Positions 41,171 to 64,000 of a stretch of 64,000 nucleotides of DNA are shown here, piece after piece. The translations under genes and the position numbers were made by a program. The stretch is from contig CABXEZ010000003.1 in assembly GCA_902511405.1 (NCBI GenBank), positions 7,251 to 71,250 on the forward strand. Reading direction: 5' to 3'. A model generated the notes under the pieces. The model searched no databases, was not told where the DNA came from, and saw nothing but the letters and a program-made list of their open reading frames with translations. Positions within the stretch are counted from its first letter, which is position 1, and each line of letters opens with the position of its first letter. This DNA is from an uncultured Alphaproteobacteria bacterium. Lineage in GTDB: Bacteria; Pseudomonadota; Alphaproteobacteria; HIMB59; GCA-002718135.

Positions 41171-41171
41171 T

Positions 41172-42155: not shown

Positions 42156-42164
42156 TTAAAACAA

Positions 42165-44307: not shown

Positions 44308-44311
44308 CTTT

Positions 44312-46371: not shown

Positions 46372-46372
46372 G

Positions 46373-47356
46373 TTAATTACAGTTGTAACAACACTGATCA
46401 ACAAAATGACCAGGTTTTGGTTCAATTAAACCCATCTCACTAGTTCCATGTTTACATTCATGTGATGGATTTGGACATCTAGTTCTGAATACACATCCAG
46501 AAGGCGGATTGATAGGGCTTGGAATTTCCCCCTTTAATAATTTTATCTTTCTTTTCTCTTCTGTAATTTGAGGCGCTATATCTATAAGAGATTTTGTGTA
46601 TGAATGAAGAGGATTGTTAAATAACTCTTTTGTTTCAGCAATTTCCATAACATTGCCAAGATACATTACCATAACATGATCTGAAATTTCAGAAACCACG
46701 CCCAAGTCGTGAGTAATAAAGATAATTGACATCCCAAGTTTTTTTTGAAGTTCTTGCATCAATTCAATAATTTGTGCTTGTATAGTGACATCTAAGGCAG
46801 TGGTTGGTTCATCTGCTATAAGAATTTTTGGATTGCAAGATAGTGCCATAGCAATCATAGCTCTTTGACGCATTCCACCGGAAAGCTCGTGCGGAAAAGA
46901 GTCAATTCTTTTTTGAGGCTCAGGTATCCCAACTAAATCCAGCATATCAATTGCAATTTTTCTTGCCTCTTTTTTATTTTTATTTTGATGCAGCATTATT
47001 ACTTCAGAAATTTGAAAAGAAAGATCATATACAGGATTTAAACTTGTCATAGGTTCTTGAAAAATCATTGAGATACTATTACCTCTAATTTTTCTCATTT
47101 CTTTTTCTTCCATGTTAATTAGGTTATTGTTGTTAAAAATAATCTCACCTCTATCTGTTGAAGCTAAGTTATTAGGCAATAAACCCATTATTGATAATGC
47201 AGTAATAGATTTGCCTGATCCAGACTCACCAACTATTGCAAAAGTCTTACCAGCTTCAAGATCAAAAGAAACTCCATCGACAGCTTTTACAATTGAATTT
47301 CCAACAGTAAAATGTGTTTTTAAATTTTTTACACTTAGTAATTTTTCTTTACTCAT
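46373..47356 (-). CDS. oligopeptide/dipeptide-type ABC ATP-binding protein (DppD/OppD-like) with Cys-rich tail
   Basis: 327 aa. 'GESGSGKS', 'LSGGMRQR', and C-terminus 'PSGCVFRTRCPNPSHECK...DQCCYNCN'. Confidence 0.85.
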   Translation of the reverse strand: MSKEKLLSVKNLKTHFTVGNSIVKAVDGVSFDLEAGKTFAIVGESGSGKSITALSIMGLLPNNLASTDRGEIIFNNNNLINMEEKEMRKIRGNSISMIFQEPMTSLNPVYDLSFQISEVIMLHQNKNKKEARKIAIDMLDLVGIPEPQKRIDSFPHELSGGMRQRAMIAMALSCNPKILIADEPTTALDVTIQAQIIELMQELQKKLGMSIIFITHDLGVVSEISDHVMVMYLGNVMEIAETKELFNNPLHSYTKSLIDIAPQITEEKRKIKLLKGEIPSPINPPSGCVFRTRCPNPSHECKHGTSEMGLIEPKPGHFVDQCCYNCN

Positions 47357-48753
47357 ATTTTATTTCCAAACATTGGAGATACAAAAAAATTATTGTTTTT
47401 GTATTTATAAAATTTTTTATTATCATAAACAATTTTGCCATTTACAATAGTTGTTTTTACTATCCCTTTAATCTTATCGCCAAAATATAAATGAGCACAT
47501 TTTTTACCTTTAGAAACAAGAGTCTTTTGACTAACCATCCATTTTGCATTTAAGTCTAAAATACACAGATCAGCATCTGAGCCTTTTTTTATAATCCCCT
47601 TTCTTGGAAATATATTAAATCTCTTGGAAGGGTTTAGGCACATTAATTCAATAACTTTTTTTAAATTAATCTTTTTCTTAGAAGCCGCATCCAGCATTAA
47701 AGGTAGCATTAATTCCGCACCCGGTGATCCAGGTGGAGCTTTTGAAAAATCTTTTCTTCCTTTTAATTTTTCATTTAATGAAAAAGATGCGTGATCTGAT
47801 GCAATTATACTTAATGAATTATTTTTTAACCCTTTCCAAAGTTCATCTTGATCAACTTTGGTTCTTATAGGAGGATTTATTTTTCCAAACGGACCGACTT
47901 TGATAACATCTTTTTCAGTTTTAAATAAATAATGTGGACATGTTTCAGCACTTATATCTTGCCCTTTTTTTTGGAAATATGAAATTATATCTAAGGATGT
48001 TTTAGATGTAACATGAGCAATATGTATTTTTGTTTTTGCTATAGAATTTAAATTTAATATTTTTGATATAGCTAAAGCTTCAGCAATTGCTGGTCTTGTC
48101 GCATTATGTACTTCAGGATTCGATTTTTCAAAATTACTTTCAAATTTTTTGAAATAATCAAGCATACTTTGATCTTCAGCATGAAATATTGTAGTAAGAT
48201 TAGACTTCTTAGCATGCATTAGTGCATCTAAAATTTTATCCTCTTCAGTAAAACATAAACCGTCAAATTCTGACTTTCTGTTTGCTGGAGCTGCTATTGT
48301 AAAAATTTTAAAAGCAATAGCTCCATTTTTAATTAAACTGTTCAGATTAGAATTAGTCAGTTTGCCTATAGCGGGTATAAAAGCAAAATTGATAATAGTA
48401 TTTTTTGAAAAATGTTCTTTTCGATCTTTTAGCACTTTTCCATTGGACATGCATGGATCACTTATTGGCATTTCAAACAATGTTGTAATCCCACCTTTTG
48501 CTGCAGCTTTTGTTTCACTTTCTACTGTGCCTCTTTCAGGGAATGAAGGGGCTCTTACATGAAAATGAACATCTACAACACCAGGAATAACTGTTTGATT
48601 TTTCGCATCTATAATTTTTTTTGCTTCATATGATTTAATGTTATTTGAGATTTCTAGGATTTTACCCTTATTGACTAACACATTTATAATTTGAAATTTA
48701 TTTTTATAAAAAACTTTTCCATTTTTAATTATTAAATCAATTTTTTTATTCAT
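47353..48753 (-). CDS. cyclic amidohydrolase (dihydroorotase/allantoinase/hydantoinase family)
   Basis: 466 aa. 'PGVVDVHFHVR', 'GGITTLFEMP', 'AEDQ' and 'ASDHA' blocks fit the metal-dependent cyclic amidase superfamily. Confidence 0.8.
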   Translation of the reverse strand: MNKKIDLIIKNGKVFYKNKFQIINVLVNKGKILEISNNIKSYEAKKIIDAKNQTVIPGVVDVHFHVRAPSFPERGTVESETKAAAKGGITTLFEMPISDPCMSNGKVLKDRKEHFSKNTIINFAFIPAIGKLTNSNLNSLIKNGAIAFKIFTIAAPANRKSEFDGLCFTEEDKILDALMHAKKSNLTTIFHAEDQSMLDYFKKFESNFEKSNPEVHNATRPAIAEALAISKILNLNSIAKTKIHIAHVTSKTSLDIISYFQKKGQDISAETCPHYLFKTEKDVIKVGPFGKINPPIRTKVDQDELWKGLKNNSLSIIASDHASFSLNEKLKGRKDFSKAPPGSPGAELMLPLMLDAASKKKINLKKVIELMCLNPSKRFNIFPRKGIIKKGSDADLCILDLNAKWMVSQKTLVSKGKKCAHLYFGDKIKGIVKTTIVNGKIVYDNKKFYKYKNNNFFVSPMFGNKI

Positions 48754-50176
48754 TTTTAAAAATTTTTAATTCTTTCAAAGCTTTTGCAACTCCATCAAGA
48801 TTAGATAATTTCATTGATGAATAATTAGGAGAAAGAACAAAACCTTCACCCCCAGCTTTATAAGTAGCTAAGACTGATCTATAAGCTATGTCAGGTGTAC
48901 ATATTGCTTGGTCTTTTGATGATCTTGGTGCATCAATTCCAATTCCCATATAAACTTTAGATCCTCCATCAACCCCTCTTACTGCATCTTTACACTGAGT
49001 GTAGATATAAGTATCAGGATCTAAGCCTCGTTGCGTAAGTTTTTCAAGACTTGTTTCATTTATCCCAAGTATCTTTGCAAAAACTCTAGTTAATTCAGAG
49101 CCAGATAAATCATCTAAAATTGTTTTACCAAAAATATCAATTTCTCTTTGAAATATTTCTCCAGATTGATGCTGATAGGTAATTGGTTTTACCCAATCTG
49201 AATATTCAACTTGTTCTTTCCAAGGCCATTGAATTTTCCTGATTAAATTGAAATGATTTCTGTTCCAAACATTCAGACCAAAAGATAAATTTGGATTTAC
49301 CCATTTCACTAAACCATAAATTTCTTTATCTAAATCTTTATTACGTTGTAACCAAAATTTCTCCCACTCAAGTATTTCTGGTTTTTCAAATAAATGTCTA
49401 AAAAACTCTATAAAATTTCCATCAACAAATTTCTTTCCCTCTCGTATATCAATAAAAAATTCATACATATATTTTAGTGAGTCTTTTATTTTAGGAATGT
49501 TTAAATTATTTTGACTAGCTTCAAGTAAAAATTGATTTGAAAAATCTCCTGGAGCGTTTCCTTGAAACAATTGATCTAGTGGTGAATATCTCTCGTTACA
49601 CCACATCACGCCATCGATATCATAATTAGCAACTTGATCTTCAATCATTGAAAGTATCCAATTTCTGTAATCTAAATTGCTAGTGGATGGAGATGAACTT
49701 ATTTTTCCAAAAATATCTATTTCCATACATTGAACAAGATTTGGAAGATCAACTCCTGTTGCAGAGCCATGACCAGCGTAATTAAAAAATGGTTCCATTA
49801 ACTCTATGAAAACTTTCATCCCACGCTCTTTAGCTTTGGGTATAACCATTTTTAAAATATCGTTATTGATCATTTCTTTATCTTGCGCTTTAAAATTTTT
49901 GATGAATGTTTTGTTATAAAATTTTGGGTCAGGATCAAAATATGCCCCACCTTTCATCGCAAAGGGTTCAGGAATTCCATGATCTGGCCACCCGTCTATT
50001 TTCCAAGATACGGATCTACCAGACTTTAATCCTAGCCATGAAACAGTGCCAATAAGAAGTACATTAATACCTACTCTATTTTGAAGCGTGTCTAAAACTT
50101 GATCTACGCCTTCATCTATAAAAGAAATTGGACTTATTTGAATACCAGCAAATTTATTATTTATTTCTTTACTCAT
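48746..50176 (-). CDS. hypothetical protein, no recognisable family (possibly TIM-barrel-like)
   Basis: 476-aa uninterrupted ORF, translationally coupled on both sides (8-nt overlaps). I recognise no diagnostic motif. Confidence 0.6.
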   Translation of the reverse strand: MSKEINNKFAGIQISPISFIDEGVDQVLDTLQNRVGINVLLIGTVSWLGLKSGRSVSWKIDGWPDHGIPEPFAMKGGAYFDPDPKFYNKTFIKNFKAQDKEMINNDILKMVIPKAKERGMKVFIELMEPFFNYAGHGSATGVDLPNLVQCMEIDIFGKISSSPSTSNLDYRNWILSMIEDQVANYDIDGVMWCNERYSPLDQLFQGNAPGDFSNQFLLEASQNNLNIPKIKDSLKYMYEFFIDIREGKKFVDGNFIEFFRHLFEKPEILEWEKFWLQRNKDLDKEIYGLVKWVNPNLSFGLNVWNRNHFNLIRKIQWPWKEQVEYSDWVKPITYQHQSGEIFQREIDIFGKTILDDLSGSELTRVFAKILGINETSLEKLTQRGLDPDTYIYTQCKDAVRGVDGGSKVYMGIGIDAPRSSKDQAICTPDIAYRSVLATYKAGGEGFVLSPNYSSMKLSNLDGVAKALKELKIFKNE

Positions 50177-51329
50177 TTATAAAATTTTTTATTCTGTTCA
50201 TTGACTCTTCTATTTTATTTATTGGTTGTAAATATGATAGACGAATATATTTATCTTCATCATCGCCAAATAATGTCCCAGGAAATAGTAAGACGCCAGT
50301 TTTTTCTAATAGTTTTTTACAAAAATCAGATGCTGCTAAACCTGAATTAGACACATTAGTATAAATATAAAAAGCACCACCTGGATCACCGTATGAGAAT
50401 CCTATCTCATCCAAGGCTTTCATACAAAATTTTCTTCTGATGTTGTACTCATCTTTCATTTTAATAATTTCATCTTGAGGACCTTCTAAAGCAGCTAAGG
50501 CTCCAAATTGGGAAAAAGTGCACGAATTAATTGATAATGAATGCCTAATCTCTGACATTTTTTTTATTATATCTTCTGGTCCTGCTACATATCCAATTCT
50601 CCATCCAGTCATTGCATAGGTTTTTGAGAACCCATTTAGAGTGAGTGTTCGTTCTTTCATATTTTCAAGAGTTGCAATTGATAAATGTTCATGATTTTCA
50701 TAAATTAAATCAGCATAAATTTCATCTGCGATTACTATTAAATTATGCTTTATGGCTATGTCGGCAATCTTTTTTATATTTTCCGGTGGTGTAACTGCTC
50801 CAGTAGGATTGTTTGGTGAAACAAGAACTATTACTTTAGTTTTGTCATTTATTTTCCCTTCAATAATCTCTGGCATTAATGAAAAATTATTTTTTTCATA
50901 AGTGGGGATTGGTATAGGTTTGGCATTGCACATTCTTACATTCAGATCATAAGTTGTAAACCTAGGTGAGGTTATAAGTACTTCATCCCCAGTTTCTAGT
51001 AAGCTTAACATCGCTAAAGCGATACTTTCTTGCACTCCTGCAGTTACTACTATTTCATTCTCACTGTAATTTAGATTATATTTTTCTTGTAAATTTTTTG
51101 AAATAGCAACTCTTAATTCTGGCAAACCATTTGGTGGAGTGTAATGATGTTTATTATCATCTAAAGCTTTTTTTGCAGCTTCAACTATATGTTTCGGGGT
51201 ATGAAAATCAGGATCACCTCTTCCCAAAGGTATCACATCATCAATTTTAGATGCTATACTTAATAATTCTGATCTAAAAGATTCATCATCTAGAGATATT
51301 TTTTTCGATTTATCAAAAATAATTGTCAT
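50169..51329 (-). CDS. class I/II PLP aminotransferase (aspartate/aromatic type)
   Basis: 386 aa. 'NPNNPTG', 'SKTYAMTGWRIGY' (PLP Lys) and 'RLSY'. Confidence 0.85.
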   Translation of the reverse strand: MTIIFDKSKKISLDDESFRSELLSIASKIDDVIPLGRGDPDFHTPKHIVEAAKKALDDNKHHYTPPNGLPELRVAISKNLQEKYNLNYSENEIVVTAGVQESIALAMLSLLETGDEVLITSPRFTTYDLNVRMCNAKPIPIPTYEKNNFSLMPEIIEGKINDKTKVIVLVSPNNPTGAVTPPENIKKIADIAIKHNLIVIADEIYADLIYENHEHLSIATLENMKERTLTLNGFSKTYAMTGWRIGYVAGPEDIIKKMSEIRHSLSINSCTFSQFGALAALEGPQDEIIKMKDEYNIRRKFCMKALDEIGFSYGDPGGAFYIYTNVSNSGLAASDFCKKLLEKTGVLLFPGTLFGDDEDKYIRLSYLQPINKIEESMNRIKNFINE

Positions 51330-52564
51330 TATACCAACCTATTGCCACTAATATAAACTTGTCTGACATTCGATAAATCATCAATGTTTTGATCAGGTTT
51401 ACCTTCAACTATAATTAAATCAGCTTCTTTTCCAACTTCAATAGAGCCGAGCTTATCATCCATTTTATTCACTTTTGCAGCTCGGTAAGTAGCAGATTGA
51501 ATAGCATCAAGATTATTTTTAACTACTCCAAGATCAATCATAAATTTCATTTCTGGAACTATAGCATCATGAGGTACTACTGGGGACCCTGCATCTGTTC
51601 CAAATATAATTTGAATTCCTGCCTCACTGGCTTTAACTAAAGAGTCAAATCTTGATTTATCCTTAACAATTTTTTGTCTTTCCTCTATTTTCCATTCTGG
51701 GATATTATACTTTCTTGCTATTTCAGCATTACTTTGCATTACAACTGGAGAAAAAGTTGTGCAAATTGGAATATTTTTTTTAGCAACCTTTTCTATAGTT
51801 GATTCGGTCATAGGACCTCCATGCTCTATGCAATCAATTCCAAAATCAACAACCCTACTAATTGCATCATTAAACGTTGCATGAGCGGTAATATATAGCC
51901 CATTTCTATGAGTCTCATCAATGACTGCGGTTAATTCTTCATCTGTAAATTCAAGAGTATCATGACACGCCATAATTTTAATTAAGTCTGCGCCAGCTCC
52001 AACTTGTTCTCTTACTGCTCTTCTCATTTCATCAGCCCCTGATGCTTCTCTACAACACCAATAAGTATGTCCAGCAGTTTGAACTATAGCTTCTCCACAA
52101 ATTTTAAGCCTTGGACCAGGATAAATACCTTGCTCTATAGCTTGTTTTGCAAAAATATTAGTTTTATTCATGCCAAGATCTCTAACTAAAGTAATACCTG
52201 CTCTAAGAGATTTTAACATATTTGCACATGATTTATATGCAGATATTTCAACTGCATCATCCATAGATTGTTGTGCTAAGTCATGTGTTCCATCCCAAGC
52301 CAGATGTGCATGAGAATTCATTAGGCCTGGTAATAATGTATGATCTTTAAGCTCAATAATTTTTTTGTTTTTTATTTCCTTACTTAGTTGAGATTGTTGA
52401 CCAACCTTAATTATCTTTCCATCTTCAATCTCTACAAATCCATTCTCAATTATTTCAAGTGATTTAGGTTCAATAATTCTAAGTTTGAATAAAATATTTT
52501 CTTTATTGTCTTCAAATAAAGGACGAAGTATTTTTCTAAATTTCCATGGTGCTGCTTCTGGCAT
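51329..52564 (-). CDS. amidohydrolase_1 family metal-dependent hydrolase
   Basis: 411 aa. 'LLPGLMNSHAHL', 'ITAHA', 'CIEHG' and 'GTDAG' motifs. Confidence 0.8.
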   Translation of the reverse strand: MPEAAPWKFRKILRPLFEDNKENILFKLRIIEPKSLEIIENGFVEIEDGKIIKVGQQSQLSKEIKNKKIIELKDHTLLPGLMNSHAHLAWDGTHDLAQQSMDDAVEISAYKSCANMLKSLRAGITLVRDLGMNKTNIFAKQAIEQGIYPGPRLKICGEAIVQTAGHTYWCCREASGADEMRRAVREQVGAGADLIKIMACHDTLEFTDEELTAVIDETHRNGLYITAHATFNDAISRVVDFGIDCIEHGGPMTESTIEKVAKKNIPICTTFSPVVMQSNAEIARKYNIPEWKIEERQKIVKDKSRFDSLVKASEAGIQIIFGTDAGSPVVPHDAIVPEMKFMIDLGVVKNNLDAIQSATYRAAKVNKMDDKLGSIEVGKEADLIIVEGKPDQNIDDLSNVRQVYISGNRLV

Positions 52565-52573: not shown

Positions 52574-53743
52574 TCAGTTTAAGTTAATAATTCTATTATC
52601 AATACTTTTATCTAAAAAGTTTGGTATTTGTTTTCCTCTGCTTTTTCCAACTATCATTGAACTTATTGTTCGATATCCATCTATATTTGGTCGGTAAATT
52701 CCTGGCTCATTAGAAAAAACCATATTCTCTTTAAGTACTGTTTTATCACCTGGTGATAACCAAGGAGCTTCGTGTCCCTCAAAACCCATACCATGACCAA
52801 TTCTATGCCTTACATATTTAGTTAAGTTATACTCACGATAGACTTCTGAAGTAGATTTATTTACTTCTTCACAAATATTACCTTCTTTAAGATTTTCCAC
52901 AGCTACATCATTTACTTTTTTCATGGCTTTAATTATATTTTCTTGGTCTTTATTTGGTTCACCTAAAATAAAAGTTATTCCTGACTCGGCGTACAATCCT
53001 CCAACACATGCACCCACACCACAAATAAGCGTTTCATTTTTTTGAGGAACTCTACTTAGAGATTTACCATGTGGAAATGCTCCTCTGGGACCAGAATGAA
53101 TTGTAGCGACAACATTGCAAGGCGTTTCATCGAACGCACTGGACAATTCATTTAACATCCGTGTTTTTGAAAATTCTGTACATATCTTAACAAGGGATCT
53201 TTCATCAATATTTTGATTAATTAATTCTTTTGCATTGTCTCTTAGATACTCAATTGCAAGATCAGCATATTTAGATGCAATGGAGATAAGTTTAATTTCC
53301 TCATCAAGTTTTTCAAATCTAAAATTTTCTAAACCAGTGTTATGATCTAAGATATCAAATTTGTTTTCTAGTAAATTTAAGATATCAATATTTTTTATAT
53401 CAGTACCAACATTTTTTTCTGTGATATTATTTGCCATAAAAGAGAAGGGGTTAATTTCTCCTGGAAATTCTTCATAAATATTTATTTCATTCACATTCAG
53501 ATTCTCCGCATTTTCTTTTTCAAGTAAAGGAATGAATAATTTAGTTTTATTATTTTTTGATAAATAAAAACCTGATGGCCTTTCATTAGTAACATAAAAA
53601 AAACCAGTGAAATAAAAAATATTTGCAGGATTAGTAACTAAGCAACCATCTAGATTTTTTTCATGTATTAAATTTAGTAATTTTTTTCTAGTATTCTTGT
53701 AAAAATTTTCACTTAGTGGAGAAATATTATTTTGTATATTCAT
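52574..53743 (-). CDS. M24-family hydrolase (Xaa-Pro peptidase / creatinase / ectoine-hydrolase-like)
   Basis: 389 aa. Creatinase_N-like N-terminus. 'HRIGHGMGFEGHE' and 'VFSNEPGIY' pita-bread metal motifs. Confidence 0.8.
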   Translation of the reverse strand: MNIQNNISPLSENFYKNTRKKLLNLIHEKNLDGCLVTNPANIFYFTGFFYVTNERPSGFYLSKNNKTKLFIPLLEKENAENLNVNEINIYEEFPGEINPFSFMANNITEKNVGTDIKNIDILNLLENKFDILDHNTGLENFRFEKLDEEIKLISIASKYADLAIEYLRDNAKELINQNIDERSLVKICTEFSKTRMLNELSSAFDETPCNVVATIHSGPRGAFPHGKSLSRVPQKNETLICGVGACVGGLYAESGITFILGEPNKDQENIIKAMKKVNDVAVENLKEGNICEEVNKSTSEVYREYNLTKYVRHRIGHGMGFEGHEAPWLSPGDKTVLKENMVFSNEPGIYRPNIDGYRTISSMIVGKSRGKQIPNFLDKSIDNRIINLN

Positions 53744-54801
53744 TAATTTAAATTTAACTTTTCAATTTTTAAATTATCTGCAAGTTCTTCAAATGATAAT
53801 AAAACTTCATCATCGAGAGGTATGCCAAACTTCATTTTTTCTTCAACTCTCTTATTTTCTATCTCTCCTGGCACTAAGATTTCATTAAAATCTGGTCTAA
53901 GAGGAAGTGTTTTAATTGTATCAACAAAATCATCTATGCGTTTATAAAATTCAGTAATCTCCATAAACCAATCAATATTGATTGCTGTCAATGAATGAGA
54001 TACATCTAATTTTTTTGGATCAGAATAAGGTATCAAACCATAACCGCCGCCACTAATTACGCCTGTCAAGACGTCAGTCATAAAAGACAAACCGTATCCT
54101 TTATATTGCCCTATACCGAGAAGAAAACCATCCATAGCTTCTGAAGGATTTGTTGTTTCATAACCTTCTTTCGTAATAGCCCAATCATTTGGCATTGGTT
54201 TATTTTCTCTCTCATGCCATCTCATCATTCCTTTACCAGCAGTTGTAAGAGCAATATCAAGTATGAGTGGAAAGCCTTTTCCAGTGGGACAAGATATTCC
54301 CCATGGGTTTGTACCTACTCCTCCACTTTTAGATCCCCAAGGAGCCATTTCTGGTCCAGCATTTGTATAGACTACGCCTATGCAATTTTTTTTAGTTGCT
54401 TTTACAGCATGAACGGAGCTTGAACCAAAGTGGGTTGAATTTTTAATGATGACTTTACCTATACCTTCTTTTTTTGCTTTATTAATTGCAATATCCATAC
54501 ATTTTGAAGCTTGCACAGTACCTATTCCATTTTTCGCATCAATTAAAGCAAGTGATGAACTCTCTTTTATAATTTCATATTCTGCATTGACATTAACTTC
54601 ATTATTTTTGATTCTTTTATAATAGGTTGTTATTCTCTGTACCCCTTGACCTTGGCCAGATTGAAATCTTAGCTCAGAAAACATGAGTGCGTCAGAAAAA
54701 ATCTCTGCATCAATTTTATTTAATCCCATTGCAATAAAAGAATTTAAAACGAATTCTTTTAAATTCTGAAAATTTACCGAGGTCATTTTGATATCGGTCA
54801 T
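53743..54801 (-). CDS. Ldh_2 family dehydrogenase (ureidoglycolate / Pyr2C / sulfolactate dehydrogenase-like)
   Basis: 352 aa. 'STHFGSSS', 'GTNPWG' and 'KGYGLSF'. Paralog of 4312-5361. Confidence 0.8.
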   Translation of the reverse strand: MTDIKMTSVNFQNLKEFVLNSFIAMGLNKIDAEIFSDALMFSELRFQSGQGQGVQRITTYYKRIKNNEVNVNAEYEIIKESSSLALIDAKNGIGTVQASKCMDIAINKAKKEGIGKVIIKNSTHFGSSSVHAVKATKKNCIGVVYTNAGPEMAPWGSKSGGVGTNPWGISCPTGKGFPLILDIALTTAGKGMMRWHERENKPMPNDWAITKEGYETTNPSEAMDGFLLGIGQYKGYGLSFMTDVLTGVISGGGYGLIPYSDPKKLDVSHSLTAINIDWFMEITEFYKRIDDFVDTIKTLPLRPDFNEILVPGEIENKRVEEKMKFGIPLDDEVLLSFEELADNLKIEKLNLN

Positions 54802-54805: not shown

Positions 54806-55684
54806 TTACTTAATAAATTTTATATAATTAATTATGTTAGCACTTGACTCTAGCTTTGCCTTCGCATTATTTTTTTTTGATGACATTAAAATTGTTATAC
54901 CTGGTCCATAGCCAGCTCGAGGCCCATTAGTTTGTCCAATTATGCCAACAGCCCAAGCATTTCTTAAAAAACCATGTTGATAGCTGCTGTCATAGTTCTC
55001 TATATAGATAATATCTCCAAGCTTTAATTTATCTAATTTATATTTCTTCATTTCAGAGCTATCAGTTGTTTGAATGTGGAGTGAACCAGACTCACTTGTT
55101 AGTCCTGATCCAGCACCAATTAGATGTTCTGGAATTATATGAGTAACAGGTATTACCATCTTCTTATCTTTATTTTTAATATTCATTTTAACAAAAAGTT
55201 GAGGAGATAAGCTTTTACAGAATACGTCTTTAAAGTTATTTATTTTTAGACCAACCCCAAATGACTTTATTAATATTTTATCATTGATTGAAATTTTTTC
55301 TCTGATTTTTTTTGGAAAATGGACAATTACTTGCTCTGAAAATCGACCTGACTTTCCTGTTACAATCCCTTTTGCATTCTTTGCTTCACCACTCATTATG
55401 GTTGCATCATTGCCAACGCAGGATAAAATATTTAATCCCCGATTGCCTGCCTCACTAGGATATTTTATTGATACGCCTGGATGTATACAATCTGCTTCCC
55501 AACCAAATGCAGAATCTCCAATTGATACATTATGGACTATTGATCCCCAGCTTGGTAAAAGAAAAGGAGAGCCATTTGAGTCTAATCTATAGGGTTCAGC
55601 TGGTAAACCTTGAAAATTAGGCTGACAGACTGAGCCTACAACACTTACATTTACTAATAATTTTTCATTTGTTTCTATTTTCAT
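54806..55684 (-). CDS. unknown-function protein, paralog B (resembles what I recall as DUF4438)
   Basis: 292 aa. Shares 'GD.AFGW..D.I.PGVSI', 'SGEAK..G.VTG', 'KL.LGD.I.I' and 'G.GPGI' blocks with the adjacent gene. The family assignment is from memory and unverified. Confidence 0.6.
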   Translation of the reverse strand: MKIETNEKLLVNVSVVGSVCQPNFQGLPAEPYRLDSNGSPFLLPSWGSIVHNVSIGDSAFGWEADCIHPGVSIKYPSEAGNRGLNILSCVGNDATIMSGEAKNAKGIVTGKSGRFSEQVIVHFPKKIREKISINDKILIKSFGVGLKINNFKDVFCKSLSPQLFVKMNIKNKDKKMVIPVTHIIPEHLIGAGSGLTSESGSLHIQTTDSSEMKKYKLDKLKLGDIIYIENYDSSYQHGFLRNAWAVGIIGQTNGPRAGYGPGITILMSSKKNNAKAKLESSANIINYIKFIK

Positions 55685-56544
55685 AATTTTATCTTTAGTA
55701 TATTTTTTAAATTAGCATTTTTATTAATTTTCCAACCGAGGTTTTTTTTAGTTCCAGTCATGATTGTCATTATTCCTGGACCATGACCAGTCATAACAGA
55801 GTCACCATGAATACAAAGAGCAATACTCACATGGTCTTTTTTATAGGAACGTCCCCATCTGTGGTCTGCGTGATTTATAACAATTAAATCTCCTAATTTC
55901 ATTTGATCTATTTTTAACTGTTTCATTAATGACCGATCACCAGACATTAAGTCTTGATCCACATACTCAGAATTTAACTCAGCTCCAGAACCCATTATTT
56001 TAATTGGTAACTCTATTGCAACATCGACGATTAACTTTTTATTTTCAACTTTGAAATTCATAGATTTTAAAAAATTGGGGTCAATTTTTTTAATTTCAAT
56101 TTCTAGAAAATCTAATAATTTTAAACCCCTACCATGAGTTATGATATCAATTTGATCTCCAACACAAATTTTTTCAAGTGTATTCTGTTCAAAATGAATT
56201 AAATTTCTAGCATGCTCTCCTGTAACGACACCAGTTTTGCCTTTAGCTTCTCCTGATCTCACAATTGCTTTATTCCCAGTACAAACCAGGTAGTGCAAAG
56301 CAAAATGCTCATTAATGTTTTCTGAGTCAATGGAAACTCCAGGCTCTATGTGATCACCGCTCCATCCAAAAGCTTTATCTCCAACTTTGACATTATTTAC
56401 CACACCATACATACCAGGCAGTATTACTGAATTTCCGTCGTTATTAGGAATATATCCTGGGTTTTTAAAAGATGGTTGAGTTACATATCCACCAATTGAC
56501 ATTTTAATTAAATTTTTTTCGTTGGTTTTTAAATTTGGAATCAT
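55681..56544 (-). CDS. unknown-function protein, paralog A (DUF4438-like); first gene of the minus-strand operon
   Basis: 287 aa. ATGA overlap with paralog B. Same conserved blocks. Confidence 0.6.
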   Translation of the reverse strand: MIPNLKTNEKNLIKMSIGGYVTQPSFKNPGYIPNNDGNSVILPGMYGVVNNVKVGDKAFGWSGDHIEPGVSIDSENINEHFALHYLVCTGNKAIVRSGEAKGKTGVVTGEHARNLIHFEQNTLEKICVGDQIDIITHGRGLKLLDFLEIEIKKIDPNFLKSMNFKVENKKLIVDVAIELPIKIMGSGAELNSEYVDQDLMSGDRSLMKQLKIDQMKLGDLIVINHADHRWGRSYKKDHVSIALCIHGDSVMTGHGPGIMTIMTGTKKNLGWKINKNANLKNILKIKL

Positions 56545-56591
56545 TAACTTTCAAATAACTTGTTTAAATAAAATAAAAAATAACAAAATAG

Positions 56592-56661
56592 TCACTTCAG
56601 TGGTGCTAAAATGTGATCTATATATATAAATAAGATTGCAAAATTATCACCACTGAAGTGA
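56592..56661. promoter_or_regulatory. 14-bp perfect inverted repeat TCACTTCAGTGGTG / CACCACTGAAGTGA separated by 42 bp in a divergent promoter region
   Basis: Arms at 56592-56605 and 56648-56661, read directly. The right arm itself contains TATCAC-N7-GTGATA. Confidence 0.55.
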
Positions 56662-56709
56662 TAATTTATCTATTTCTTAAAATGTCAAAAAGCTTTAGAA
56701 ACGAAAAAT

Positions 56710-58245
56710 ATGGGAAATGCATTTACAAAATTAAGTAAGGAAATAAATAAATTTAACGATGTTTTAAACACGATGTCGATTTTGATTTGGGACTCAAGAA
56801 CTAAGATGCCAAAAAAAGGAGCTAATAGTAGAGGTTATCAGGTTGGTACATTAACATCTGTAGCTAGAGATATTCTTCTCTCATCCAAAATGAGAAAACT
56901 TTTAGATGAGTCTCAAAATGAAACACATAATTTAAATGACGATAGTTTTGAAAAAAAAACATTATTACATTTAAATGAAGCAATAAGTTATCATGATAAA
57001 ATCCCTGAAAAACTTCAAGTAAAAAAAGCAGAATTAGAACCTTTGGCTCATAATGCATGGGCTGAAGCAAGAGAAAAAAAAGATTTTAAAATATTTCAAC
57101 CTTATTTGGAAGAGCAAGTAAATATTGCAATAGAACAAGCACATTGTATTGGCTTTAAAGACCATCCTTATGATGCTTTAATGCAAAGATTTGAGCCAGG
57201 TGAGACAGTAAAATCTCTAAAAGTACTTTTTGATGAACTCAAAATAGGTCTTGGGGAAATTGTTAGTCAAACTTCAAAAGCTGAACAGCCAAACAAAGAT
57301 TTTTTATTTAAAGAATATCCTATCGAAAAACAAATAGAGTTTTCTACAAATATAGCAAAAAAATTTGGTTATGATTTTGATAGAGGAAGATTAGATAGTA
57401 CTGTCCATCCTTTTGAAATTTCATTTACAAGAAATGATGTACGGATAACTACAAGATATTATAAAAATTTCATTAACCCTTCTTTATTTGGTACACTTCA
57501 TGAAGCTGGACACGGCATTTATGAACAAAATGTAAAAGAAGAATATACACGTTCAGCAATGACAACTGATTTTCTTAGTTTTTATGCTGTTGGAGGTGTT
57601 AGTTTTGGCGCACATGAGTCACAATCAAGATTATATGAAAATCATATTGGAAGAAGTAAGATATTTTGGGAAAATCATTTTGGTGACTTAGTTGATTGTT
57701 TTCCAGATACGCTTAAGAATGTGTCATCTGAAGACTTCTTTAGAGCTGTAAACGTTATTGAGCCGAGCTTAATTAGAGTAGAGTCAGATGAGTCAACATA
57801 CGATTTTCATGTGATGCTTAGAGTAGATATAGAGAGTATGTTAGTTGATAAAAGTTTAAAAGTCTCAGATCTACCAGTTGTATGGAATGATCAAATAAAG
57901 AAGTATCTTGACTTAAATGTCCCTAATGACAGTGAAGGTGTATTACAAGATATCCACTGGTCAGGAGGTCAATTTGGTACTTTCTGCAATTACACAATTG
58001 GTAATGTTATGGCTGCTCAATTAATTAATACAATGGATAAAAAACAACCAAATATTAGAGAGGATATAAATAAAGCAAATTATTCATCTTTATTGAATTG
58101 GTTGAGAGAAAACATTCATCAACATGGAAGAAGATACTTGAGAAATGAACTTTTGGAAAGATCAACAGGTGAAACTCTTAATGCAAAACCTTACATTGCT
58201 TATTTAAAAGATAAAGCAAGTCAAGTTTATGGAGTAAAATTTTGA
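56710..58245 (+). CDS. M32 carboxypeptidase (Taq-type metallocarboxypeptidase)
   Basis: 511 aa. 'HEAGHGIYE' HExxH, 'HESQSRLYEN', 'IRVESDESTYDFHVMLR' and 'DIHW' are M32 signatures. Confidence 0.88.
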   Translation: MGNAFTKLSKEINKFNDVLNTMSILIWDSRTKMPKKGANSRGYQVGTLTSVARDILLSSKMRKLLDESQNETHNLNDDSFEKKTLLHLNEAISYHDKIPEKLQVKKAELEPLAHNAWAEAREKKDFKIFQPYLEEQVNIAIEQAHCIGFKDHPYDALMQRFEPGETVKSLKVLFDELKIGLGEIVSQTSKAEQPNKDFLFKEYPIEKQIEFSTNIAKKFGYDFDRGRLDSTVHPFEISFTRNDVRITTRYYKNFINPSLFGTLHEAGHGIYEQNVKEEYTRSAMTTDFLSFYAVGGVSFGAHESQSRLYENHIGRSKIFWENHFGDLVDCFPDTLKNVSSEDFFRAVNVIEPSLIRVESDESTYDFHVMLRVDIESMLVDKSLKVSDLPVVWNDQIKKYLDLNVPNDSEGVLQDIHWSGGQFGTFCNYTIGNVMAAQLINTMDKKQPNIREDINKANYSSLLNWLRENIHQHGRRYLRNELLERSTGETLNAKPYIAYLKDKASQVYGVKF

Positions 58246-59408
58246 TGGATATTAAAAAATTTGTTGCTTCTAGAATTAAGGATCACAAGTCTAATATTGT
58301 TACTCAAATGTGGAACATCCAACAAAAACTAGATGATGTAATCGCAATGGGTAGGGGTGATACTGATTTAGATACGCCTAGACATATAATCGATGCTGGC
58401 ATCAATGCCCTTAATAATGGTGCAACCCATTATACCCATCCTATGGGCATGCCTGAGTTACGAAAAGAAATTAGTGAGGATATACTAAGACATGGTGGTG
58501 CAAAATATAGTGATGATGAAATAGTTGTCACTGCGGGTGGACAGGAAGCAATGTTTGCAATTGCCCTAGGTATTTTAAATTCAGGAGATGAAATGATTGC
58601 TGTAGCACCTGGATACAACCCTTATTTTCAAGCAGCAGAGTTAGCTGAAGCTAATCCAGTAATGGTTGAAACCTTCATAGATAATAATTTTGCTATGACA
58701 GCAGAGGCTGTTGAACCGTTAATCACGAACAAAACCAAAATATTGGTTATTATTAACCCATGTAATCCAACTGGAGCAGTTACTCCTTATGAAGAAGTCG
58801 TTAAGTTATCTAAATTGGCAATTAAACATGATCTAGTTGTCATTTCTGATGAAATATATTCCAGACTAACATTTGGTAATCATAGCGCACAACCTGTTGC
58901 GGCCTTACCAGATATGTTTGAAAGAACCATTACCCTTAATGGTTTTTCTAAGGCTTATTGTATGACAGGTTGGAGGGTAGGGTATTTTGCTGGACCTAAA
59001 AATTTAATTACGCATCTTGGTGAAATTCATCATGGATTTGCAATTTGTGCTCCAGCAGTAAGTCAACACGCAGCTTTGGCAGCACTTAAAGGTCCACAAG
59101 ATTGTGTAATTGAAATGAGAAAAATTATGCAAGAAAGGTGTGATATACTTTGTAATGGATTAGATGAAATAAATATTCCTTATTCTGAACCACAAGGTGG
59201 TTATTATGTTTATGCAAACGTATCGAAGACGGGATTAAACGCTACTGATTTTTGTCTTAAGTTATTAGAAGAAGGAAAGGTTATTATTTATCCAGGAGGC
59301 CTATACGGAGATCACTGTGATGACTTTGTAAGATTTTCCTTAACGCAACCTGCTGAAAAAATTAGAGAAGCTGTTTCAAGAATTAAAAAGGTAGCTAGTA
59401 ATATATGA
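58242..59408 (+). CDS. class I/II PLP aminotransferase (paralog of 50169-51329)
   Basis: 388 aa. 'NPCNPTG', 'SKAYCMTGWRVGY' and 'RFSL'. ATGA overlap with the M32 gene. Confidence 0.85.
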   Translation: MMDIKKFVASRIKDHKSNIVTQMWNIQQKLDDVIAMGRGDTDLDTPRHIIDAGINALNNGATHYTHPMGMPELRKEISEDILRHGGAKYSDDEIVVTAGGQEAMFAIALGILNSGDEMIAVAPGYNPYFQAAELAEANPVMVETFIDNNFAMTAEAVEPLITNKTKILVIINPCNPTGAVTPYEEVVKLSKLAIKHDLVVISDEIYSRLTFGNHSAQPVAALPDMFERTITLNGFSKAYCMTGWRVGYFAGPKNLITHLGEIHHGFAICAPAVSQHAALAALKGPQDCVIEMRKIMQERCDILCNGLDEINIPYSEPQGGYYVYANVSKTGLNATDFCLKLLEEGKVIIYPGGLYGDHCDDFVRFSLTQPAEKIREAVSRIKKVASNI

Positions 59409-59887
59409 GTGATGAAATAATTAATGAGGTATCCGAGATTAAACATATGGCTTTTGCAGTTGAAGATATAGATGAGTCCTTAGATTATTATAAAAAATAT
59501 CTAGGAGTTTCAAAAGATGTGCAAATTCAAGATATGCCAAAATCCAGAACTAGAGTAGCAGTATTTAATATAGGCAGTATTGAATACCAACTTTGTCAAT
59601 CTCAGGATCCTGATGGAAGATTTAATAAATGGATTGCTGAAAGAGGTAGAGGTGGGTTACACCATATTTGCTATGTTGTTAAAAACCTAGATGACTCAAT
59701 TAAAGTTATGACTGAAAGTGGCGCAACATTGAGAGAATGCAAGGCCTGCAAAGTGACTGGGCATCATCCTCACCCTGAAGGTTTTATTGCTTTTCTTGAT
59801 AATGAGGTAGATAATTTAGAAATAGAGCTAATGCAGGTATATACTGATGCAGAATTAGAGAAATATAAATCTTACCAAGGAATATAA
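59405..59887 (+). CDS. VOC-fold protein, CxxC/HPHPEG subfamily (paralog of 40679-41170)
   Basis: 160 aa. 'IKHMAFAV', 'GLHHICYVV', 'CKACKVTGHHPHPEGFIAFLDNEV' and 'ELMQVYTDAELEK'. Confidence 0.78.
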   Translation: MSDEIINEVSEIKHMAFAVEDIDESLDYYKKYLGVSKDVQIQDMPKSRTRVAVFNIGSIEYQLCQSQDPDGRFNKWIAERGRGGLHHICYVVKNLDDSIKVMTESGATLRECKACKVTGHHPHPEGFIAFLDNEVDNLEIELMQVYTDAELEKYKSYQGI

Positions 59888-59888
59888 A

Positions 59889-60779
59889 ATAAAAACAATT
59901 TTTTTAACTGGAGCTGGTGGTTTTTTAGGTTCAGAATTAGTTAATGGTTTATCAAAATATAAATACAAAATATATTTTAATGATATTGATTTTTCTTACA
60001 AAATAACAAAATCAAAAAACATTAAAAAATTAAAATTCAATTTATTCAAAAAAGATTTATCCAATCAATTAGATAGGGCTGATATATTTATTCACAACGC
60101 AGCAGTAACCAAATCCTCAAAGTTTAGTGATCCTAATAAGCTTATAGATTTTAATATTCAACTAACAAAAAATGCCCTTAATTTAGCTAAACGGCTTAAT
60201 AGTAAAACATTTTTTTTGATAAGCTCCACATCTATTTATAGAAATTTACAATCCGAAAAATATAATGAGAGGTCGCGAGTTATTGGTGCAGACCCTTACT
60301 CAAAATCGAAAATAATGTCAGAAGGAATTTGTAGGAAGTTCTGCAACAAATATAAGATAAAGTTTTCTGTTTTAAGAATTGGTAATATTTACAATGGGAA
60401 TGAGAAAAAAAAATGGAGTAGAAATAATGTTTCTCTTGTTCAGCAGTGGTTAAATGCTCTAAAAAAGAATATTTTATTAAAAACTAGTTCATTTGAGAAC
60501 GTAAGAGATTGGACTTATGCAAAAGATATTCCTCGAGCAATAAATAGCATAATTAAAAATAATAATAATTTTAAAATTTTAAATTTAGTATCACCATATT
60601 TAATAAAGGATATCAAATTAATGAAGACAATATGTTCTAATGAAAAATTATTAATATCAGATAATAAGGATGTAATTAATAATGCCACTGTTTCAATTTA
60701 TAAAAGAAAATTAAAATTTAATGATTGGACTTCACCTCAAAGAGGTATTAATTTAATTAAAAATAATGAAAAAAATTAG
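59889..60779 (+). CDS. NAD-dependent epimerase/dehydratase (extended SDR); 5' end lacks a canonical start
   Basis: The track starts at TTG 60216. The same frame is open from 59859 and encodes 'IKTIFLTGAGGFLGSELV' (Rossmann GxxGxxG) upstream, plus 'YSKSK' (YxxxK) downstream. Only ATA 59889 or ATT 59898 are available as starts. Confidence 0.6.
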   Translation: MKTIFLTGAGGFLGSELVNGLSKYKYKIYFNDIDFSYKITKSKNIKKLKFNLFKKDLSNQLDRADIFIHNAAVTKSSKFSDPNKLIDFNIQLTKNALNLAKRLNSKTFFLISSTSIYRNLQSEKYNERSRVIGADPYSKSKIMSEGICRKFCNKYKIKFSVLRIGNIYNGNEKKKWSRNNVSLVQQWLNALKKNILLKTSSFENVRDWTYAKDIPRAINSIIKNNNNFKILNLVSPYLIKDIKLMKTICSNEKLLISDNKDVINNATVSIYKRKLKFNDWTSPQRGINLIKNNEKN

Positions 60780-61770
60780 ATTATTGCTAGTTGGTTATGG
60801 TCCAAGAGGTAAAATATGGGCTAAAGCGATAAAAAAAAATTCAAAAACAGAATTGGTAGGTATTTGTGATATTAATAAAGATCTAGAACATAAAAATCCA
60901 AAAAATATAATTTTCTTTCATAAAATAGATAGTGCTTTATCTTATTTAAGACCTGATGCTGTAATATTATCTACCCCACCATTTAATCGCATGCAAGATC
61001 TTAAGGTTTGTGCAAAATTCAAACTTCCTATTTTAGTAGAAAAGCCATTAACTATAAATTTAGAAGAAGCTAAACGTCAAATTTCTTTTATGAATAGACA
61101 TAAACTTCTTTTGTTTGTTGGTTTAAACTTTCGATATCTACCAACAACTTTGGAAAAGATAAAATTATTAAATTCAGGCAAAGTAGGAAAACCAAATTTT
61201 GCAAAATTTGTTTATGAAAGATGGAGAGATGGAAAACTAGCAAGATTAAATAAATACCCTCTTCATATGAAGCATCCAATGTTATGGGAACAATCAATTC
61301 ATCATTTTGACTTAATAAGATTTATTTATAATTCAAATGTTAAAAAAGTATTTGCAACAACATCTAACCCACCTTGGTCAATGTATAAGCATGACACAAA
61401 TGTAAATGCTATATTAGAACTTCAAAATGGTATAATTGTAAATTACATTGGTAATTGGCAAAGCAATTGTAAATCACTAAATTTTGAATGGAGAACGGAT
61501 TGCTCCAAAGGAATAATTGTTCAAAAAAAACAATTTGATGATTTAAACTACAGGACTACTAATCAACTCAAATTAAAAAAAATACAATTAAAAAAATTTA
61601 CTATGTGGCTAGATGATGCTAGCGCTCTACTTTCAGATTTTATAAATTCAACAAATAACAATAAAAATTTTATAAAATTAAACAAAGATCATTTAAATTC
61701 ACTATCTATTGTTGATGCGTGTATAAAGTCATCAAAAACAGGAAAAAAAATTAGTATTAAAAATTACTGA
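60766..61770 (+). CDS. Gfo/Idh/MocA family oxidoreductase
   Basis: 334 aa. 'LLVGYGPRG', 'STPPFNR' and 'ILVEKPL'. Confidence 0.8.
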   Translation: MKKIRLLLVGYGPRGKIWAKAIKKNSKTELVGICDINKDLEHKNPKNIIFFHKIDSALSYLRPDAVILSTPPFNRMQDLKVCAKFKLPILVEKPLTINLEEAKRQISFMNRHKLLLFVGLNFRYLPTTLEKIKLLNSGKVGKPNFAKFVYERWRDGKLARLNKYPLHMKHPMLWEQSIHHFDLIRFIYNSNVKKVFATTSNPPWSMYKHDTNVNAILELQNGIIVNYIGNWQSNCKSLNFEWRTDCSKGIIVQKKQFDDLNYRTTNQLKLKKIQLKKFTMWLDDASALLSDFINSTNNNKNFIKLNKDHLNSLSIVDACIKSSKTGKKISIKNY

Positions 61771-61908
61771 TTTCTATTACTTTTTTTGCATAATGAATCA
61801 CATAAGAATGACTTATAGTCATCACTTAAATGACTAATTTACTATTTTAAAATATTAAAATTTCATTAGTTTCCATACAAGATTTCATATTTTATCGAGG
61901 GAGGTTTT

Positions 61909-63468: not shown

Positions 63469-63481
63469 ATTTATTTGATAT

Positions 63482-63506
63482 GTTGGCTCCATTAATTGGG
63501 GCCAAC
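63482..63506 (+). terminator. intercistronic stem-loop after the binding-protein gene (9-bp stem with one G-U; no T tract)
   Basis: GTTGGCTCC (63482-63490), loop ATTAATT, GGGGCCAAC (63498-63506). Confidence 0.45.
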
Positions 63507-63532
63507 AAAAATTTCATCATTAATTTAAATAA

Positions 63533-64000
63533 ATGTTTTTATATATACTTCGTAGATTGCCACAAACAATTTTAGTTATCTTTGGGGTAACATTAGTAAC
63601 ATTCATTGCTTTACAAATAGGTGGAGATCCAACTTATCTATTTATAAGTGACAGAGCTTCTCCAGAAGAGATTGAAGCGACAAGAATAAAACTTGGATTT
63701 GATAAGCCGCTTTATATTCAATACTTTAATTACGTTATAAAACTTCTTCAGCTAGATTTTGGAAATTCATTATACTTTGGTCAATCTGCGATGACAATAA
63801 TTCTTGAAACATTACCGGCAACTCTTGAACTTACCATTTTTTCTATGTTTATTGCAATTTTTGGCTCTATCCCATTTGGAATTTTTGCTGCAGTATACAG
63901 AGGCACATGGATTGATGGAACATTAATGGCTATCGCAATGTTAGGTCAATCAATTCCAAGTTTTTGGTTAGGCATAATGTGCATTCTGTACATATCTTTA
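63533..64000 (+). CDS. ABC transporter permease (DppB/OppB-like), 5' part; runs off the window
   Basis: ATG 63533. 'MFLYILRRLPQTILVIFGVTLVTFIALQ...LGFDKPLYIQYFNY...DFGNSLYF' is the typical DppB N-terminus. Absent from the ORF track because there is no stop inside the window. Confidence 0.8.
   Translation, partial: MFLYILRRLPQTILVIFGVTLVTFIALQIGGDPTYLFISDRASPEEIEATRIKLGFDKPLYIQYFNYVIKLLQLDFGNSLYFGQSAMTIILETLPATLELTIFSMFIAIFGSIPFGIFAAVYRGTWIDGTLMAIAMLGQSIPSFWLGIMCILYISL

Follow-up and report, generated by a model that had tools for sequence, protein, structure and literature searches.

The closest described relative of the two genes considered here is TM1086 of Thermotoga maritima (PDB 3DCL and 3N99), which was deposited as 'uncharacterized' and is their sole significant relative of solved structure. 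The two genes, which we refer to as A and B, lie side by side on the minus strand of a 64 kb stretch of DNA from an uncultured alphaproteobacterium (contig CABXEZ010000003.1; we refer to the whole 64 kb stretch as the window), and both encode proteins of the family DUF4438. TM1086 occurs in the literature in a crystallisation table only, with more than 1 MDa per asymmetric unit before proteolysis (PMC2661377), and a full-text search for DUF4438, TM1086, 3DCL, 3N99, PF14505 and PF20999 returned no functional mention of any of them, the sole match for 'PF14505' being to a different family (CAP_assoc_N). As the function of TM1086 is unassigned, a match to it names a fold and not an activity.

Other described systems offer partial parallels. 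Trypanosomatid S-adenosylmethionine decarboxylase and its 'prozyme' form a heteromer of a catalytic protein and a dead paralogue. A and B may be likened to them in that A keeps a conserved site whilst B has lost it, is still under selection and is co-inherited with A, but the fold and chemistry are unrelated, and the comparison is one of analogy and not of membership. Clusters for ureides, hydantoins and ectoine (AllB/AllC/AllD, ErtD/ErtE, DoeA/DoeB) share with the surroundings of A and B a cyclic amidohydrolase, an AstE/AspA deacylase, an M20 peptidase, an Ldh_2 dehydrogenase and an aminotransferase, a likeness which, judged by comparing the proteins, is at the level of family names only. These pathways are not known to include a DUF4438 or GHL10-like protein, or to rely on a Dpp/Opp importer.

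Our analysis of the pair in the window and in other genomes leads to a reading to which we give about an even chance: A and B would form an obligate hetero-oligomer, A being catalytic and B a non-catalytic or specificity-giving partner, which acts at the keto/hydroxy-acid node of a conserved gene island.

A tandem pair of DUF4438 genes

All coordinates below are positions in the window (Table 1), and residue numbers are those of A unless marked B. The sequence-only reading of this stretch had described two adjacent, paralogous open reading frames of ~290 aa, for which it suggested the name DUF4438, and both statements proved correct: the genes encode 287 and 292 aa, overlap by 4 nt (ATGA, the TGA stop of A sharing bases with the ATG start of B) and their products align with 35% identity over 288 aa (BLASTP, E 2e-59), far beyond chance, whilst each protein matches PF14505 in its N-terminal and PF20999 in its C-terminal part, end to end, with 119–163 bits (gathering scores of 24.9 and 27 bits for the two DUF4438 models in Pfam). 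The sequence blocks listed as shared by A and B are real, aside from two slips: the block 'SGEAK..G.VTG' has three spacer residues and not two (SGEAKGKTGVVTG in A, SGEAKNAKGIVTG in B), and 'KL.LGD' matches B only, the block common to both being KLGD.I.I. The GC content of the window is ~30%, and its nearest relatives are single-cell genomes of uncultured marine Alphaproteobacteria, with 83–90% identity.

An AlphaFold2 (AF2) model of A (pLDDT 88.9, pTM 0.89) was placed on 3DCL by Foldseek with a TM of 0.90, an rmsd of 2.0 and 37% identity, and a PDB sequence search matched B to 3DCL over residues 4–288 (E 2.3e-55). TM1086 was the only significant hit when the A model was searched against the PDB with Foldseek (next match E 0.015, TM 0.19), as well as when a 32-sequence DUF4438 profile was searched against all PDB sequences (next match E 0.56), and NCBIfam has no model for A or B. 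The claim that the pair belongs to no characterised enzyme family was thereby upheld by profile, structure and literature searches. TM1086 has the same two-domain all-beta fold as A, and A carries every family-invariant polar residue. TM1086 differs in being single-copy and homo-oligomeric, and in adjoining rhomboid and Trk genes without a catabolic context; B, for its part, lacks the invariant set.

Single-copy DUF4438 genes were found in Thermotogae, Clostridia and various metagenomes, encoding proteins 38–47% identical to A. Those of Clostridia (Caloranaerobacter, Zhenhengia, Clostridium nigeriense, Lutispora) share the signature residues with A yet, unlike A and B, are effectively monocistronic and have no Ldh_2, aminotransferase or peptide ABC system nearby. 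Compared with the single-copy proteins, E110, H113 -> R, E189 and H228 are clade-specific to A, and two residues are deleted after position 112 (GG/GI in single-copy proteins). Matches to A comprised more than 1,300 clusters of sequences (at 90% identity), and many of these came from Tara and other marine samples.

To compare the arrangement of the genes, we collected 99 DUF4438 loci from genomes and metagenomes, in which the window proteins then served as queries. All 61 two-copy loci have A followed by B; the two genes are at most 10 nt apart in 55 of them and overlap in 36. Gene starts were assigned by homology and the gaps are approximate. Every apparent single A-like gene with at least 48% identity lay on a contig cut just past the gene. 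At gene level A and B are thus an obligate pair, adjacent and in the same order throughout, and their spacing suggests joint expression. In a neighbour-joining tree all A sequences form one clean clade and all B sequences another, which argues for one old duplication. Mean identity is 36% between A and B and 41–42% between either of them and the single-copy proteins. The relationships fit a single ancient duplication, after which A and B would have been inherited together.

Loss of the conserved residue set in B

The two paralogues have evolved asymmetrically, as a comparison of 38 A, 37 B and 46 single-copy sequences, each set being non-redundant, shows. Eight residues (H65, E67, H111, S186, D196, D198, H246 and H254) are 100% conserved in the A and the single-copy sets, and window B has C, H, S, A, S, H, Q and Y in their places. 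Across the B set the commonest replacements are Cys for H65 (76%), His for E67 (89%), Ser for H111 (100%), Ala for S186 (95%), Ser for D196 (89%), His for D198 (89%), Gln for H246 (70%) and Tyr for H254 (84%). H65, H111, D196 and D198 are absent from all 37 B proteins, and S186 from 35, the remaining two keeping Ser. In the deepest-branching B proteins the replacements differ from those of the main clade (for example E-L-Q, N-E and M-Q at positions 64–67, and A, V or S at 196), yet the same four residues are lost there too. Other positions were kept in A, B and single-copy proteins alike, namely N8, D64, C88, N91, D130, D219, D227, a GxGPG motif and N278, and ~24 polar positions are near-invariant across the family, including four His, eight Asp, one Glu and one Cys. 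By its residues, B is a member of the fold with a remodelled site, and it looks as though the ancestral site was lost in B and the replacements were fixed later, in the main clade.

The ratio of non-synonymous to synonymous substitution rates (dN/dS) was 0.03–0.07 for A and for B (0.059 and 0.073, respectively, in the least saturated comparison), and B is therefore not decaying but under purifying selection. The pair thus shows what we took to mark a heteromer: one paralogue that keeps the site, one that has lost it, and purifying selection on both.

A similar asymmetry has arisen in a single chain. The metagenomic representative P0241 is a 636 aa DUF4438 tandem with a degenerate N-terminal and a canonical C-terminal module, and both halves are closest to single-copy proteins, which points to a separate duplication, independent of that of A and B. 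P0241 thus resembles the pair in combining one degenerate with one canonical module, as in B and A, and differs in having its own duplication, the order degenerate to canonical, and a signal-peptide-like N-terminus. Such N-termini are present in P0241 and P0292, and some DUF4438 members are probably exported. Other multi-domain DUF4438 representatives were set aside: the partial domains in them (fragments of sulfatase and clostripain) meet mid-fold, which suggests chimeras produced during assembly or gene calling. P0243 was rejected as a fusion, being a read-through of an A/B junction.

At S186 an invariant G-S-G of A and the single-copy proteins becomes G-A-G in B, and a low-confidence loop (188–191) follows in the AF2 model of A. 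We considered self-processing of the pyruvoyl or N-terminal-nucleophile kind, with cleavage of the Gly-Ser bond, for this site; the PanD fold match of the A model in Foldseek was not significant (E ~1).

The dehydrogenase neighbour and the conserved island

A and B head ten minus-strand open reading frames running from 56544 down to 45406, spaced between an 8-nt overlap and a 9-nt gap, with the listed TTG start of the last ATPase gene as the exception to this tight packing. Coordinates and Pfam matches agree with the sequence-only reading in placing the pair first in a tight ten-gene operon, with neighbours of the families it had named. Neither terminator-like nor promoter-like sites inside the operon exceeded the numbers in shuffled sequence.

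The gene that follows B encodes an Ldh_2-family oxidoreductase. Among solved structures it comes nearest to a type-2 malate dehydrogenase (1V9N, 200 bits) and a sulfolactate dehydrogenase (2X06, 169 bits); DpkA reached 72 bits, and by these sequence scores the window protein is far from that imine reductase. Its position is highly constant. Where the sequence extends at least 2 kb downstream of B (48 pairs), an Ldh_2 gene is present no further than 1.8 kb from B in 46, directly after B in 40 of these and after one small VOC gene in the other six. The two exceptions belong to a sister clade with a D-isomer-specific 2-hydroxyacid dehydrogenase (PF02826), whose gene stands immediately upstream of A in five loci (L065-L068 and L072; for example L066:8969-9982 and L072:1138-2148). 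Ldh_2 was not detected in these five loci, of which only L066 has long flanks. The PF02826 gene and Ldh_2 each touch the A/B pair, and from the sequences we regard the former as a non-orthologous displacement of the partner dehydrogenase. That an unrelated enzyme with this type of reaction has taken the place of Ldh_2 speaks more strongly than any other observation for a coupling of A and B to an NAD(P)H-dependent 2-oxo/2-hydroxy-acid step.

Beyond the dehydrogenase, loci with 50–60% identity and a GC content of 0.55–0.72 have the same gene order, in an island of ~20 genes. Distant loci keep a divergently transcribed arm comprising M32, a second aminotransferase, VOC, AstE/AspA deacylase and polysaccharide-deacetylase-family (PDA) genes, in the order PDA-AstE-Glx-AT2-M32 facing A-B, and further out their islands contain an SDR epimerase, a Gfo/Idh/MocA oxidoreductase, a family-5 solute-binding protein and two permeases. 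Some loci have in addition a GntR/FCD regulator or DHDPS-family, ureidoglycolate-lyase-family, M14 or M20 genes. From this distant synteny, the window genes at 40679-43070 and 56710-64000 are part of the same system, the ten-gene operon is one arm of an island of ~20 or more genes, and the ATPases at the operon end belong with the binding protein and permeases encoded on the other arm.

We counted island genes in the 37 pair loci of at least 15 kb, which include close relatives and hence are not independent. Ldh_2, the 476-aa protein and an aminotransferase were each present in 36 of the 37, followed by the VOC protein (35), the amidohydrolase-type carboxypeptidase (33), the cyclic amidohydrolase and M24 (32 each) and M32 (31). 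The association of the pair with amidohydrolase and aminotransferase genes, on which the sequence-only reading had staked its proposal, is therefore a conserved one: the neighbourhood survey found both, together with Ldh_2, in distant genomes.

The island occurs in the cultured Pelagibacterium lentulum and Wenxinia saemankumensis and in an Acidobacteriaceae metagenome-assembled genome (MAG), and would extend from marine Alphaproteobacteria with streamlined genomes as far as Rhizobiales, Rhodobacterales, Acidobacteriota and Deinococcota. The locus of the Acidobacteriaceae MAG (JAPWKG010000030.1, GC 0.59) has A and B, Ldh_2, M32 and the ABC cluster, and its A is 61% identical to the marine alphaproteobacterial A, equal to the highest value among the distant loci collected (GC at least 0.46). 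This points to the island having moved horizontally, or to misbinning of the contig.

Comparison with described pathways

Ureides and hydantoins, which had been put forward as substrates to try, are not specifically supported by the protein models, as allantoinase, AllD, ErtD and DoeA all fell below their cut-offs. The cyclic amidohydrolase scored 295.3 bits against the allantoinase model TIGR03178 (cut-off 357.85) and 326.2 bits against its best model, ErtD (cut-off 650). For the Ldh_2 protein we rejected ureidoglycolate dehydrogenase (AllD, TIGR03175; 151 bits against 496.2) and sulfolactate dehydrogenase (ComC; 234 bits against 500), though the latter is the closer of the two. DoeA was rejected for the M24 protein (TIGR02993; 39.2 bits against 613), whose nearest solved structures are prolidases. 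With every equivalog cut-off missed, membership of a ureide, ergothioneine-hydantoin, ectoine or sulfolactate pathway was rejected. The remaining peptidase-like member of the operon, the amidohydrolase-superfamily protein, has as nearest structures (2QS8, 3BE7, 3MTW) an Xaa-Pro dipeptidase and Xaa-Arg carboxypeptidases, the best NCBIfam match of the first aminotransferase (AT1) is aspartate aminotransferase, under its cut-off, and the AstE-type deacylase, which we considered as a possible DoeB orthologue, has its best PDB relative in 6TWL, an N-acetyl-diaminobutyrate deacetylase, with no more than 83 bits over residues 30-238.

The 476-aa protein, which the sequence-only reading called an orphan, had no match in a PDB sequence search. 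Its AF2 model (pLDDT 83.6) is a TIM barrel, which Foldseek matched to the GHL10 domain of Clostridioides difficile Cwp19 (5OQ3, E 1.6e-11) and the C-terminal domain of PgaB (4P7O, E 1.5e-10), and no signal peptide was found; according to the model, it is a cytoplasmic TIM barrel resembling glycoside hydrolases. The family is narrow (693 clusters) and almost confined to the island, of which it is the best-conserved protein at long range (59–67% identity), with homologues also in Rhizobium, Mesorhizobium, Aureimonas, Limimaricola and in Trueperaceae and Longimicrobiales MAGs. In a mirror-tree comparison the distances of A, B and the 476-aa protein covary, with a partial r of 0.52–0.60 after the shared trend was removed, whilst most other pairs stayed below 0.33 and M24 with AT1 reached 0.68.

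We considered muropeptides or glycopeptides, hydroxyproline peptides, opines and Amadori compounds as substrates, going by family names only; the genes behind these candidates are the GHL10/Cwp19-like barrel, a CE4 deacetylase, the prolidase-like enzymes, Gfo/Idh/MocA and, in some genomes, the DHDPS-family gene. Again by family name, the 476-aa barrel and the deacetylase-family, Gfo/Idh/MocA and SDR genes hint at an amino-sugar-like part in the substrate.

Interpretation of the gene pair

Our preferred reading of the pair runs as follows. The His/Asp/Glu-rich polar constellation of A would be the ancestral one and a putative active or ligand-binding site, and B would be a structurally intact paralogue that lost this site soon after the single ancient duplication and now serves as a non-catalytic or specificity-giving partner. 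The A/B complex would be cytoplasmic and work inside a conserved import-and-degradation island, made up of a Dpp/Opp-type ABC importer, at least six C-N hydrolases, a set of sugar-type oxidoreductases with the glycoside-hydrolase-like TIM barrel, and a keto-acid node consisting of two class-I aminotransferases, the VOC protein and the NAD(P)H 2-hydroxyacid dehydrogenase. A/B may make or consume the 2-oxo or 2-hydroxy acid of the adjoining dehydrogenase, and the substrate of the island may be an imported N-acylated, peptide-like and possibly glycosylated amino-acid conjugate. As to the reaction itself, we would guess at metal-assisted chemistry of the hydro-lyase, isomerase or hydrolase type, acting on an acidic intermediate that derives from an amino acid and is released from this conjugate. 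The heteromer of two diverged paralogues proposed in the sequence-only reading gains indirect support from the fixed gene order, the tight spacing, the asymmetric loss and the independent fusion; we infer the physical complex itself, as well as the catalysis and the link to the dehydrogenase.

Several points weigh against a catalytic A paired with a non-catalytic B. The case for catalysis by A is drawn from its invariant polar residues and operon position alone, and neither the PDB profile search nor Foldseek gave A or B a catalytic relative, by sequence or by fold. Single-copy genes, be they from Thermotogae, Clostridia or metagenomes, have no conserved neighbours and no metabolic context, and the mirror-tree link among A, B and the 476-aa protein is weak evidence, as it is confounded by phylogeny. 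TM1086 forms a homo-oligomer in its crystals, with 5 and 30 copies per asymmetric unit (PMC2661377), and A and B could each do the same. Finally, main-clade B proteins have a well-conserved set of their own (C66, H68, S112, S201, H203, Q251 and Y259 in B numbering), which resembles a second active site.

The last two points speak directly for a different account, in which A and B are two separate homo-oligomeric enzymes, B with a new Cys/His/Ser/His/Gln/Tyr site, which catalyse consecutive or parallel reactions. The strongly conserved replacements come with insertions specific to main-clade B (LP at B27-28, RF at B114-115), and B is under strong purifying selection. However, the replacements vary in deep-branching pairs, so that loss of a site fits better than gain of a new one. 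The strict order, and the close spacing seen in 55 of the 61 loci, speak for assembly in equimolar amounts, and in the independent fusion a single chain unites a degenerate with a canonical module. We hold two independent enzymes to be unlikely.

A hydrolytic role has its own attractions, and would make A/B a new C-N hydrolase (an amidase or peptidase) that performs the first cleavage of the imported conjugate and not a keto-acid step. Peptidases and amidases dominate the island and accompany a Dpp/Opp importer; the sister-clade locus L072 has aminotransferase, dehydrogenase, A, B, SDR and ABC genes on a 9.4-kb contig with no other hydrolase; the signal-peptide-like N-termini of P0241 and P0292 are compatible with cofactor-independent hydrolysis; and one Cys and several His, Asp and Glu are invariant. 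Yet the closest linkage of the pair is to a dehydrogenase, Ldh_2 or the 2-hydroxyacid dehydrogenase touching it, A and B showed no likeness to any peptidase fold or motif, and L072 is a truncated contig. We consider a hydrolase quite improbable, and quite improbable as well is a non-enzymatic DUF4438, a small-barrel binding or scaffold protein acting as ligand sensor, chaperone or metal-delivery factor for its neighbours: the sub-threshold fold matches of A are all to binding-type small beta-barrels (KOW/Spt5, ribosomal L14e, FNR-type barrels), single-copy members sit in unrelated, non-metabolic neighbourhoods and no cofactor motif was recognised, but ~24 near-invariant polar positions exceed what binding scaffolds usually keep, the pair heads an operon made almost wholly of enzymes, and a non-orthologous swap of dehydrogenases at the same spot is typical of metabolic coupling.

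Control region and further genes of the window

Between A and the M32 gene lies a divergent control region with an operator-like 10+10 dyad, AAATTATCAC-N7-GTGATAATTT, at 56641-56667. A second, inverted copy of the 13-nt core of this dyad (CACTTCAGTGGTG) is found 55 bp away, at 56593-56605, and with two mismatches allowed the 13-mer occurs nowhere else in the 64-kb window. Both copies of the core, with the same 55-bp spacing, recur in the relatives L001, L002, L015 and L016. Promoter-like hexamers overlapping the dyad were not above chance.

Several genes near the island arms show features of their own. The SDR gene has no ATG, GTG or TTG start, and the list of open reading frames shows only its last 187 aa, whilst the frame is open from 59859 and encodes a Rossmann motif (TGAGGFLGS). 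Its likely start is the ATA at 59889, after an upstream stop and AAGGA, and close relatives have ATT or ATA there; the start codon looks conserved and non-canonical. Candidate regulators for the dyad are the LysR gene at 39672-40583 and, in other genomes, a GntR/FCD gene of the island. An M20 peptidase gene and a DegT-type sugar aminotransferase gene stand between the deacetylase-family gene and the operon end, the DegT gene converging on the last ATPase gene with a 4-nt overlap. Neither has a counterpart in the other loci, the M20 gene of L038 being unrelated and placed elsewhere, and the two genes appear to have been added to the island in this lineage only. Next to the LysR gene stands another complete ABC system of the Dpp/Opp type, with a family-5 binding protein, two permeases and two ATPases fused into one protein of 579 aa; the conserved island of other genomes does not include it. 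A haem-biosynthesis cluster (porphobilinogen deaminase, uroporphyrinogen decarboxylase, ferrochelatase and coproporphyrinogen oxidase) is unrelated to A and B.

Table 1 Positions of the DUF4438 pair, its operon, the divergent arm and further features in the window
Feature	Position	Strand	Remarks
DUF4438 paralogue A	55681..56544	minus	287 aa; PF14505 148.1 bits and PF20999 130.4 bits; keeps canonical residue set
DUF4438 paralogue B	54806..55684	minus	292 aa; PF14505 163.1 bits and PF20999 119.1 bits; diverged partner
Ldh_2-family NAD(P)H 2-oxo/2-hydroxy-acid oxidoreductase	53743..54801	minus	PF02615 321 bits; constant neighbour of A/B
M24 peptidase with Creatinase_N domain (prolidase-like)	52574..53743	minus	nearest PDB entries are Xaa-Pro dipeptidases
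Amidohydrolase-superfamily carboxypeptidase or dipeptidase (Amidohydro_1)	51329..52564	minus	nearest PDB entries 2QS8, 3BE7, 3MTW
Class I/II aminotransferase AT1 (Aminotran_1_2)	50169..51329	minus	PF00155 244 bits
476-aa 'orphan', glycoside-hydrolase-like TIM barrel	48746..50176	minus	AF2 and Foldseek; weak PF02638 match
Cyclic amidohydrolase (hydantoinase, allantoinase or dihydroorotase type)	47353..48753	minus	Pfam/NCBIfam scores
Two Dpp/Opp-type ABC ATPases	46373-47356 and 45406-46425	minus	ABC_tran and oligo_HPY; syntenic in distant loci
Divergent control region, A to M32 gene	56545..56709	unstranded	dyad and half-copy
M32 carboxypeptidase	56710-58245	plus	divergent arm
Class I aminotransferase AT2	58242-59408	plus	divergent arm
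VOC/glyoxalase-fold protein	59405-59887	plus	divergent arm
SDR epimerase/dehydratase	about 59889-60779	plus	ATA start (likely)
Gfo/Idh/MocA oxidoreductase	60766-61770	plus	continuation of divergent arm
Family-5 solute-binding protein	61909-63468	plus	continuation of divergent arm
DppB-type permease, start only	63533 to window end (64000)	plus	continuation of divergent arm
VOC protein	40679-41170	plus	near the M32 arm in other genomes
AstE/AspA-type deacylase	41172-42155	plus	near the M32 arm in other genomes
Polysaccharide-deacetylase-family protein	42165-43070	plus	near the M32 arm in other genomes
M20 peptidase and DegT-type sugar aminotransferase	43036-45409	plus	
LysR gene	39672-40583		
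Second Dpp/Opp-type ABC system	34378-39665	plus	
Haem-biosynthesis cluster	28280-32644	plus	

Implications

The family and its structure were already known, whilst the subfamily of asymmetric pairs, with the island conserved around it, seems not to have been described before. Tentatively, and with more doubt than confidence, A/B may found a new enzyme class: a fold without a known catalytic relative, arranged as a live/dead hetero-oligomer, which couples to a 2-hydroxyacid dehydrogenase and performs a step not yet described for the degradation of peptide-like or glycosylated amino-acid conjugates. Should the pair prove to be a scaffold, or to differ little from a known hydrolase, it would be of ordinary interest.

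DUF4438 has had a crystal structure since 2008 without an assigned function, and this locus gives the family a defined problem, in the form of a two-gene unit with a live/dead asymmetry, a fixed oxidoreductase partner and a complete conserved island. Pelagibacterium lentulum and Wenxinia saemankumensis provide cultured hosts for genetics and biochemistry. The pair is common in ocean metagenomes, and the identity of the substrate would name a nitrogen-rich compound on whose consumption streamlined marine bacteria spend ~20–30 kb of their genome.

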